In this document: piece after piece, positions 5,932 through 7,095 of the stretch
How the letters are laid out: each line of letters begins with the position of its first letter
Numbering within the stretch: the first letter of the stretch is position 1
Assembly: GCF_054482525.1 (NCBI RefSeq)
Contig: NZ_CM137006.1
Reading direction: 5' to 3' (one strand)
DNA: 64,000 nt
Notes under the pieces: model-generated
The model's database searches: none
What the model was told of the DNA's origin: nothing
Seen by the model: the letters and a program-made list of their open reading frames with translations, nothing else
Translations under genes and position numbers: made by a program

Positions 5932-6381
5932 TTAAAGCCCACCTATTTCTTGCGACAGAAAAGGGATTTCTTTTTTAATCCAATCTATCATTTCATTTTT
6001 TTCAAAACATACGTTAATGCCATTCACACTTCCACATTCACCAAAACCATCAAAATAAATTTCACATTTATTATTTTTATTCGAAACAATGTCAACCCCC
6101 CATCTTATATCGTTATTCCCCTCCTTCCTGAAATACTTCATTTGCAATAAATCAATTATCTCACCAGCATAAAAATCGCTAACCCCATTCACCACCACTT
6201 TATGTTTGTATATTCTCTTGAGACCTTCCTTGCTAAGCGGGGTTAAGGTGGTAACATATGCTGGAAGATTAATTATTTCTATCGTTTTCACACTATCTAT
6301 TCCACACAATTCATTCACTCGCCCCATCCCCAATACCGAAGCAGAAAATAGAGACAATAAAACCATCAAATATTTCATCAT
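5932..6381 (-). CDS. Putative immunity protein for the Rhs HExxH toxin tip (149 aa, N-terminal signal peptide)
   Basis: AT-rich ORF directly downstream of the Rhs C-terminal domain. N-terminus MMKYLMVLLSLFSASVLG looks like a signal peptide. Position is typical of rhsI. Confidence 0.5.
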   Translation of the reverse strand: MMKYLMVLLSLFSASVLGMGRVNELCGIDSVKTIEIINLPAYVTTLTPLSKEGLKRIYKHKVVVNGVSDFYAGEIIDLLQMKYFRKEGNNDIRWGVDIVSNKNNKCEIYFDGFGECGSVNGINVCFEKNEMIDWIKKEIPFLSQEIGGL

Positions 6382-6393
6382 AAAAAAATATCA

Positions 6394-7095
6394 CTATTCT
6401 GGCGTGCCATTTATTGTTGCCGTCTGCGTTGGTGTATTCACACGATAATACACTCCATTATATGCTGTTCTGGTACACTCACCTAAAGTTTTCGCCGCAT
6501 GCTGTTCAATTAAAGTGATAACTCTCGCCTCTTCTTTATTTTTATATTGTTCATCCGCACGTCTCACAAGCCCCATATAACCATCCTTATCAATAAGATA
6601 TAAGTGCGCATGAGCAAACTCATGCCCCAAACCTAATGCAGGTGATTGTGATTTCGATTTTAAATCAGTTGAACAAAATAAAGCCGCCTTACCATTCCAA
6701 TATATAGTCATTTTATCCGGGTCAAATCTAACGTCGGTTTCATCAATATACTCTATCTTTATGGTTTCTTCAGAGCTTGATAAAAAATCTATAGCTTCTT
6801 TCATTCGTGAATCTTGTTTTAAATACTCAACAGCCTGATTAAAATCACTTGGATCACCGTTAACATGGAATTTTAAACCCAAAGAATCTATAAACCGAAC
6901 AGGGTTTAATGGATATTTATACAGATTCCATTCACCTCTTAGCCCGATTGGATCCTGGGTGATATACCTTCCCTGTAGCGGGTCATAGTACCGGTTCCGG
7001 TTATAGTACAGTCCTGATTCCTCATCATGCTGCTGCCCCGGCAGACGGTATGGCTGGTGCAGGTGATGCGGGTTCTCCTCATTCAGCAGGTTGCC
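6394..7095 (-). CDS. Rhs C-terminal region: end of core (DPIGL ... [13 protein letters not shown] motif) plus HExxH zincin-like toxin domain, in frame with the upstream rhs but separated from it by TGA
   Basis: Same frame as 7096..10641 (7095-6882=213, a multiple of 3). My translation of 6883..7095 gives [74 protein letters not shown], then the track ORF with ...[25 protein letters not shown]... The track start at 6882 is a TTG inside this frame. Sharp drop in GC after the DSLGL motif. Confidence 0.65.

Follow-up and report, generated by a model that had tools for sequence, protein, structure and literature searches.

A candidate M91-family zinc-protease tip, its exported candidate immunity protein and an in-frame TGA at a type VI secretion-linked Rhs locus of Escherichia coli

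We analyzed a 64,000-nucleotide stretch of Escherichia coli DNA (NCBI RefSeq assembly GCF_054482525.1, contig NZ_CM137006.1; hereafter the window), focusing on a rearrangement hotspot (Rhs) toxin gene, its C-terminal tip and the small open reading frame (ORF) behind it, all on the minus strand. We consider it fairly probable that the tip is an M91-family zinc protease carried by an Rhs protein linked to a type VI secretion system (T6SS), that it acts in the periplasm, that the 149-amino-acid (149-aa) protein encoded downstream is its exported immunity protein, and that an in-frame TGA has uncoupled the tip from its carrier in this strain. We infer the protease activity, the site of action, the immunity role and the loss of function from sequence comparison and predicted structures.

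The tip domain and its predicted active site

The tip, a predicted M91/HopH1-type zinc metallopeptidase domain, comprises 159 amino acids (6397-6873, minus strand; stop codon 6394-6396) and ends in TPE. The first-pass annotation, made from the letters of the window without database searches, had seen an HExxH signature behind the boundary motif of the Rhs core, and translation places this signature as HEFAH at residues 84-88 (6610-6624, minus strand). By translation and conservation, H84 and H88 are the predicted zinc-binding residues and E85 the predicted catalytic glutamate. Across an alignment of 125 tip homologues, H84, H88 and E123 are present in every sequence, E85 and E115 in 124, R135 in 123 and W59 in 121. 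Because H84, E85 and H88 are nearly invariant in these homologues, the HExxH is not a chance motif. Alignment position 138 is a histidine in 115 of the 125 sequences and a tyrosine in five; the window's tip has the tyrosine.

The same annotation had suggested a metallopeptidase-type tip that it could not assign to a named family. By sequence, profile and predicted structure the tip is indeed a putative zincin domain, and profile searches now allow it to be placed in the Pfam family Peptidase_M91 (Tox-HopH1) as a small putative zinc protease; this is a peptidase family, and the two histidines of HEFAH are kept throughout. A database search found relatives of the tip in Hafnia alvei (43-45% identity) under the name 'M91 family zinc metallopeptidase', with PF14891 assigned to them. 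When 50 diverse tip relatives were compared with Pfam, 31 matched PF14891 at E <= 0.001 and 48 at E <= 0.1 (best 5.9e-9), and no other family recurred among them. An exhaustive search for relatives returned 591 cluster representatives at E <= 0.001. In 147 of 172 matched stretches the M91-like domain occupies the C-terminus, many copies lie behind a DPxGL boundary, and the tip's matches in the AlphaFold Database (AFDB) are Rhs tips from many phyla, including Proteobacteria and Bacteroidota. Compared as a single sequence with the PDB, the tip gave no meaningful match.

Several observations weigh against this placement and against a general toxin role for the family. Taken alone, the window's tip has one Pfam family match, to Peptidase_M91 (PF14891, 'Effector protein'), and that match is weak (E = 0.056, 14.2 bits); against NCBIfam it has none. 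Standalone homologues of 177 aa, encoded at 5001-5534 of two soil metagenome contigs (L004/L005) among housekeeping-type genes (peptidase S9, Lon, HSP20), have no Rhs part, signal peptide or adjacent immunity homologue, and they may serve a role other than that of a toxin. A different arrangement is found in a 3732-aa protein (P0114), which has two internal M91-like copies (~1597-1748 and ~1965-2103) instead of one C-terminal copy.

The predicted structure of the tip is a zincin whose nearest fold is the botulinum neurotoxin (BoNT) light chain. Fold-neighbour values for the other zinc proteases were 7.7 for GtgA and 6.8 for NleC, both type III secretion system (T3SS) effectors, 5.7 for anthrax lethal factor and 4.9 for the VgrG2b effector domain; a comparison of the model with the VgrG2b C-terminal domain (6h56) found no close structural similarity. 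When the tip-family profile was run against PDB sequences, the BoNT/E active site (xPALxLxHExxH) surfaced, below threshold. These results agree with the work of Mansfield et al. (2019), who found that, among protease families, M91 lies closest to the BoNT light chain (M27); the two have in common the HExxH, the third ligand E261, E350 and the RxxY motif, and M91 lacks the SNARE-gripping insertions (PMC6367388). In the tip, the order and spacing E123-x11-R135-x2-Y138 equals E350...R363-x-x-Y366 of BoNT and M91.

This correspondence allows tentative roles to be assigned within the helix and loop encoded at 6460-6534 (minus strand), which contain E114-E115 (EEAR), E123, E132, R135 and Y138 and are predicted to supply the third zinc ligand and the supporting active-site residues. 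E115, on the helix after HEFAH and within an EExR motif (EEAR here), is the putative third zinc ligand, and E123, R135 and Y138 would form the supporting shell of the active site. The choice of E115 follows from spacing, with E123 as the alternative, and this counts against so precise an assignment. In the proposed mechanism, H84 and H88 would bind zinc, E85 would activate water, the invariant glutamate on the next helix would complete the zinc site, and R135 and Y138 would stabilize the transition state. The BoNT light chain, a protein of ~430 aa with large SNARE-gripping insertions, works in neurons as a component of an AB toxin, and its sequence identity to the tip is 12-20%. In comparison, the tip is predicted to be a compact, minimal zincin of the BoNT light chain type.

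The candidate immunity protein and the probable site of action

The candidate cognate immunity gene (5932-6381, minus strand; stop codon 5932-5934) begins 12 nt beyond the stop codon of the tip, on the same strand, and encodes 149 aa. Its product starts MMKYLMVLLSLFSASVLG. One basic residue is followed by an uncharged hydrophobic stretch of 17 residues, and no further hydrophobic segment occurs in the protein. By charge and hydrophobicity this is a signal-peptide-like start (6328-6381), in agreement with the first-pass annotation. Proteins named 'RHS element protein dsORF-h1' share 85% identity with it, and we take that name to belong to the classical RhsH element; a literature search for dsORF-h1 and RhsH gave unrelated hedgehog papers only. 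The 149-aa protein matches no Pfam or NCBIfam family.

An immunity homologue directly follows the toxin homologue in every polymorphic-toxin-type locus examined, which comprised seven sources besides the window (the second E. coli allele, Hafnia alvei, and loci L010, L013, L006, L012 and L014/L015). Between E. coli and Hafnia alvei, the immunity proteins are 33% identical (E = 3e-23) and the toxins ~45% identical. In all 11 immunity homologues, at least one basic residue is followed by a hydrophobic core 11-23 residues long, and the rest of the protein lacks a hydrophobic segment. Such an N-terminus is what would be expected of a Sec signal peptide, or in the case of L012 of a signal anchor, and the mature parts of most homologues contain two to four cysteines. 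The earlier suggestion that the 149-aa protein would suit immunity in the periplasm or at the envelope has therefore gained ground, since a conserved family with apparent signal peptides accompanies the toxin in these loci. We regard the 149-aa proteins as a small unnamed family and as the candidate cognate immunity to M91 tips. Three points weigh on the other side: the export call was made from simple sequence features (an 11-residue Kyte-Doolittle mean of at least 2.15), the structural model of the immunity protein is moderately confident (predicted local distance difference test score, pLDDT, of 82), and that model matched no known protease inhibitor.

The pairing also bears on whether the tip is aimed at bacteria. 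The characterized M91 members, such as NleD, target host mitogen-activated protein (MAP) kinases, and Robinson et al. (2023) predicted, from its lack of an immunity gene, that Tpe2, a T6SS M91 protein of Pseudomonas aeruginosa, is anti-eukaryotic. By analogy, the tip could be a mainly anti-eukaryotic, NleD-like enzyme that cleaves host signaling proteins, in which case the downstream protein would not confer immunity. We give this explanation very little credence. In E. coli, Hafnia and the metagenome loci, the toxin is followed by a dedicated gene that diverges in step with it, which is the signature of an antibacterial toxin-immunity pair, and in competition between bacteria the Salmonella homologue acts as one. 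Dual action of an antibacterial tip on both bacteria and eukaryotes could still lie within its range.

Features of the toxin itself point to a site of action outside the cytoplasm. Every toxin homologue with Cys133 also has Cys67 (22 of 22 overall), and none has Cys133 alone; this covariation suggests a disulfide. Within the set below 60% identity the count is seven of seven (Fisher 2e-6), a statistic that ignores phylogeny. Furthermore, some toxin homologues have a signal peptide of their own. One of them (P0015) consists of a signal peptide, a short remnant of the Rhs core and the toxin, and it adjoins an immunity gene that itself has a signal peptide. The exported immunity family, the covarying cysteine pair and the toxin homologues with their own signal peptides consequently point to action of the M91 tip in the periplasm or envelope. 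Besides the neglect of phylogeny in the cysteine statistic, one consideration counts against this conclusion: NleD-type M91 enzymes cleave cytosolic eukaryotic kinases, and a periplasmic bacterial substrate would be without precedent in the family.

Alternatively, the toxin might act in the cytoplasm, and the exported immunity protein might intercept it during entry or have another purpose. Many characterized Rhs tips are cytoplasmic nucleases or ADP-ribosyltransferases. A preprint on Shiga toxin-producing E. coli (STEC) O22:H8, which carries a related gene, likewise assumed a cytoplasmic target. We nevertheless find a cytoplasmic site improbable. The signal peptide is kept on all 11 immunity homologues, the toxin has its covarying cysteine pair, and some toxin homologues are themselves Sec-exported; moreover, a periplasmic immunity protein would leave the producer of a cytoplasmic toxin unprotected.

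If the tip acts in the periplasm, its substrate could be either protein or cell wall. A hydrolase directed at peptidoglycan, cutting its stem peptides or cross-links, in place of a protein-specific endopeptidase, would fit the exported immunity protein and the probable periplasmic action; it would also fit the small size of the tip (159 aa), which has none of the substrate-gripping insertions of the BoNT light chain. In Salmonella papers, the Rhs-M91 protein of Salmonella Dublin (S. Dublin) is tabulated as a 'peptidoglycan hydrolase', but this label is a prediction. No known peptidoglycan peptidase family (M23, M15, LAS) is found among the tip's matches. VgrG2b, the sole characterized periplasmic T6SS zincin, is reported to show no peptidoglycan hydrolase activity (PMC6899460). 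An envelope protein is favored over peptidoglycan because the nearest folds (BoNT light chain, GtgA, NleC and lethal factor) are all protein-specific endopeptidases. Accounting for both sides, a peptidoglycan target seems unlikely, and judging from the structural model the substrate of the tip is most likely a protein.

Where the gene is intact, the tip would presumably be severed at the DSLGL boundary within the Rhs shell and then fired by the T6SS. It would attack its substrate in the periplasm or at the envelope of a competing Gram-negative cell. The Sec-exported 149-aa protein would bind the toxin in the periplasm, thereby shielding the producer and its kin. A bolder proposal, plausible but held with slightly less than even confidence, is that an M91/BoNT-like fold serves as a periplasmic interbacterial weapon that cleaves an envelope protein, and that it is countered by a dedicated family of exported inhibitors for which no relatives in fold are known. 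If this proposal is true, it would provide the first bacterial substrate and the first natural protein inhibitor for the NleD/BoNT protease lineage, and it would support an origin of the host-directed members of that lineage from bacterial warfare toxins.

The Rhs carrier, the in-frame TGA and the surrounding island

In the Rhs body (7099-10641, minus strand; 1181 codons), a short PAAR-like N-terminus precedes DUF6531 and the RHS repeats, behind which the RHS core begins. The N-terminus reads KPAARQGD, with a weak Pfam PAAR_motif match (E = 0.27, residues 3-20), and is followed by DUF6531 at residues 46-122 and at least 10 RHS_repeat matches. The Pfam RHS match (PF03527) at 1152-1181 is broken off at model position 30 of 38. 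By translation, the remaining conserved C-terminus of the Rhs core, which includes DPIGL and the DSLGL variant of the boundary and self-cleavage motif, is encoded at 6874-7095 on the minus strand. The core-tip boundary reads FIDSLGL (6874-6915), with Ser replacing the usual Pro of DPxGL in the general motif PxxxxDPxGL; the variant is also present in the 73%-identical E. coli allele, and the motif preceding it differs from its counterpart in the window's second Rhs. The Rhs body has a GC content of 58-71%, the tip and downstream ORF one of 34-38%, and the value falls from ~62% to ~35% across 6874-7095. A GC break at the tip is typical for Rhs elements.

The Rhs ORF ends at an in-frame TGA (7096-7098, minus strand), 74 codons before the toxin domain, where other strains have the Trp codon TGG. 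The window accordingly reads EYDE(stop)GNLL in place of the conserved EYDEWGNLL. The first-pass annotation had overlooked this TGA, because of which the tip does not lie in one open frame with the Rhs body. E. coli PCN033 and strain 1190 both have TGG at this site, which is the sole difference in a 71-base stretch. Among 5,426 complete E. coli genomes, none matches the TGA-containing 71-mer exactly; no record reaches 99% identity, and all 38 listed full-length matches differ from it by one base. In PCN033 the Rhs is intact (1420 aa), and over 942 bases its tip and immunity DNA shows 100% identity with the window.

Either a private nonsense mutation or a sequencing error could account for the TGA. 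A sequencing error would speak against loss of function, as would read-through, in which tRNA-Trp reads UGA at a low level and restores the wild-type protein. Barring these two, the in-frame TGA makes the window's Rhs a pseudogene.

Collinearity with PCN033 identifies the region as the T6SS-1 island of E. coli, which lies between aspV/dnaQ and yafV. A T6SS gene cluster adjoins the Rhs gene, with Hcp, VgrG and Rhs in succession and tssB onwards further along, and the collinear PCN033 annotation agrees. Directly upstream of the Rhs lies a VgrG spike gene (10708-12816, minus strand; 702 aa), whose equivalent in PCN033 and 1190 is annotated 'type VI secretion system tip protein VgrG'; upstream of VgrG is an Hcp gene (13026-13544, minus strand; 172 aa), whose equivalent is annotated Hcp in both strains.

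The tagH gene, encoding a forkhead-associated (FHA)-domain protein (window 19850-22500), is split by an IS4-family insertion (~20216-21546). Within it lies the transposase gene (20382-21500, minus strand; 372 aa), which looks like that of IS186. Compared with TIGR03354, the N-terminal tagH fragment covers positions 1-106 and the C-terminal fragment 108-420. The split may disable or deregulate the adjacent T6SS. Because of the TGA and the split tagH, the toxin is probably not made or delivered in this strain. With the broken second Rhs gene downstream taken into account as well, the offensive side of the locus looks decayed and its immunity gene intact, and that gene would still guard against neighbors with a working allele.

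Broken Rhs-M91 genes next to an intact immunity gene recur in Hafnia, STEC O22:H8, strain 1190 and the window. In the Hafnia alvei locus (L003, 2465-6513) the reading frame is broken where the Rhs body gives way to the tip, and the Rhs-M91 gene of E. coli 1190 (L002, 7595-11158) lacks its N-terminus. The toxin may often be lost while protection is kept.

The tip-immunity module is present in 1,082 of the 5,426 complete E. coli genomes, about a fifth. The window's allele, at 99% identity or above, occurs in 38 of them. A second allele, found in ~995 genomes including that of enterotoxigenic E. coli H10407, has ~87% nucleotide identity and 73% tip protein identity, and is annotated dsORF-h1.

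Directly after the immunity gene, a second Rhs gene (1907-5855, minus strand) lies in three overlapping ORFs (4281-5855, 3668-4387 and 1907-3616). PCN033 labels its equivalent 'frameshifted', strain 1190 'frameshifted; internal stop', and the tip of the window's gene after DPLGL has 54 aa and no family match. Two further minus-strand ORFs follow, of 82 aa (1625-1873) and 132 aa (1226-1624). The 132-aa product starts MEMLGNILVIIISMIIISC, continuing DYYNAG, and resembles a lipoprotein signal (IISC lipobox); by its sequence it may be a further immunity protein that is exported. In L010 a close homologue (3913-4305) comes after an orphan Rhs fragment directly behind the M91 module, and the M91 and 132-aa modules therefore seem to travel together.

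Comparison with known toxin-immunity systems

Rhs toxins with M91 tips are already known. Catalogues have listed them since 2012, and competition experiments exist for one Salmonella pair. Among the toxin domains that Zhang et al. (2012) defined for RHS-type polymorphic toxins, which use the T6SS and other routes, is Tox-HopH1 (the NleD/HopH1 peptidase); their table gives '-' as its immunity family (PMC3482391). The window's tip shares with Tox-HopH1 (PF14891) an HExxH zincin at the C-terminus of an RHS-repeat toxin. In contrast to the tip in its Rhs context, the characterized M91 enzymes NleD and HopH1 are T3SS effectors that act on eukaryotic cytosolic proteins.

The Salmonella pair comes from SPI-19 of S. 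Dublin, where Amaya et al. (2022) described the PAAR-Rhs-Peptidase_M91 effector SED_RS06335 and its immunity protein SED_RS06340; loss of the SED_RS06335/06340 pair lowered survival against the wild type 2.4-fold (PMC8867033). A 2025 review repeats this account. As in the window, an Rhs with an M91 HExxH tip is followed by a small gene with an N-terminal hydrophobic segment, beside a T6SS. The S. Dublin system belongs to a different species and a different T6SS island, and SED_RS06340 is a protein of 110 aa with '1 TM'. Salmonella tips in AFDB are 34-36% identical to the window's tip. The published S. Dublin primer tails found no match in locus L010 within 8 mismatches.

Closer to the window is STEC O22:H8 strain 154, which has an Rhs-Peptidase M91 gene with a premature stop (Ec154_02824/02825; bioRxiv 10.1101/2024.03.05.583533). 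There too, an E. coli Rhs downstream of VgrG has an M91 HExxH tip and is followed by a candidate immunity gene. The strain 154 gene is the second Rhs of its island, whereas the window's is the first after VgrG, and its authors noted no signal peptide on the downstream protein.

Two other metallopeptidase systems invite comparison. The best functional analogue is VgrG2b of P. aeruginosa, reported as a T6SS-delivered HExxH zincin that is toxic in the bacterial periplasm and is countered by its cognate immunity protein PA0261 (PMC6899460). Rhs-Tox-MPTase4 (PF15640), previously the best-known metallopeptidase tip of E. coli Rhs proteins, belongs to a different zincin family; neither the window's tip nor any of the 50 relatives matched PF15640.

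Relative to these systems, the present analysis adds three elements. The first is the predicted family and fold placement of the E. coli allele group. The second is a conserved immunity family with putative signal peptides, which argues for a periplasmic target. The third is the inactivating mutation in this strain, where the immunity gene is kept and the toxin lost. The locus offers a useful lead toward the bacterial substrate of a BoNT/NleD-like protease.

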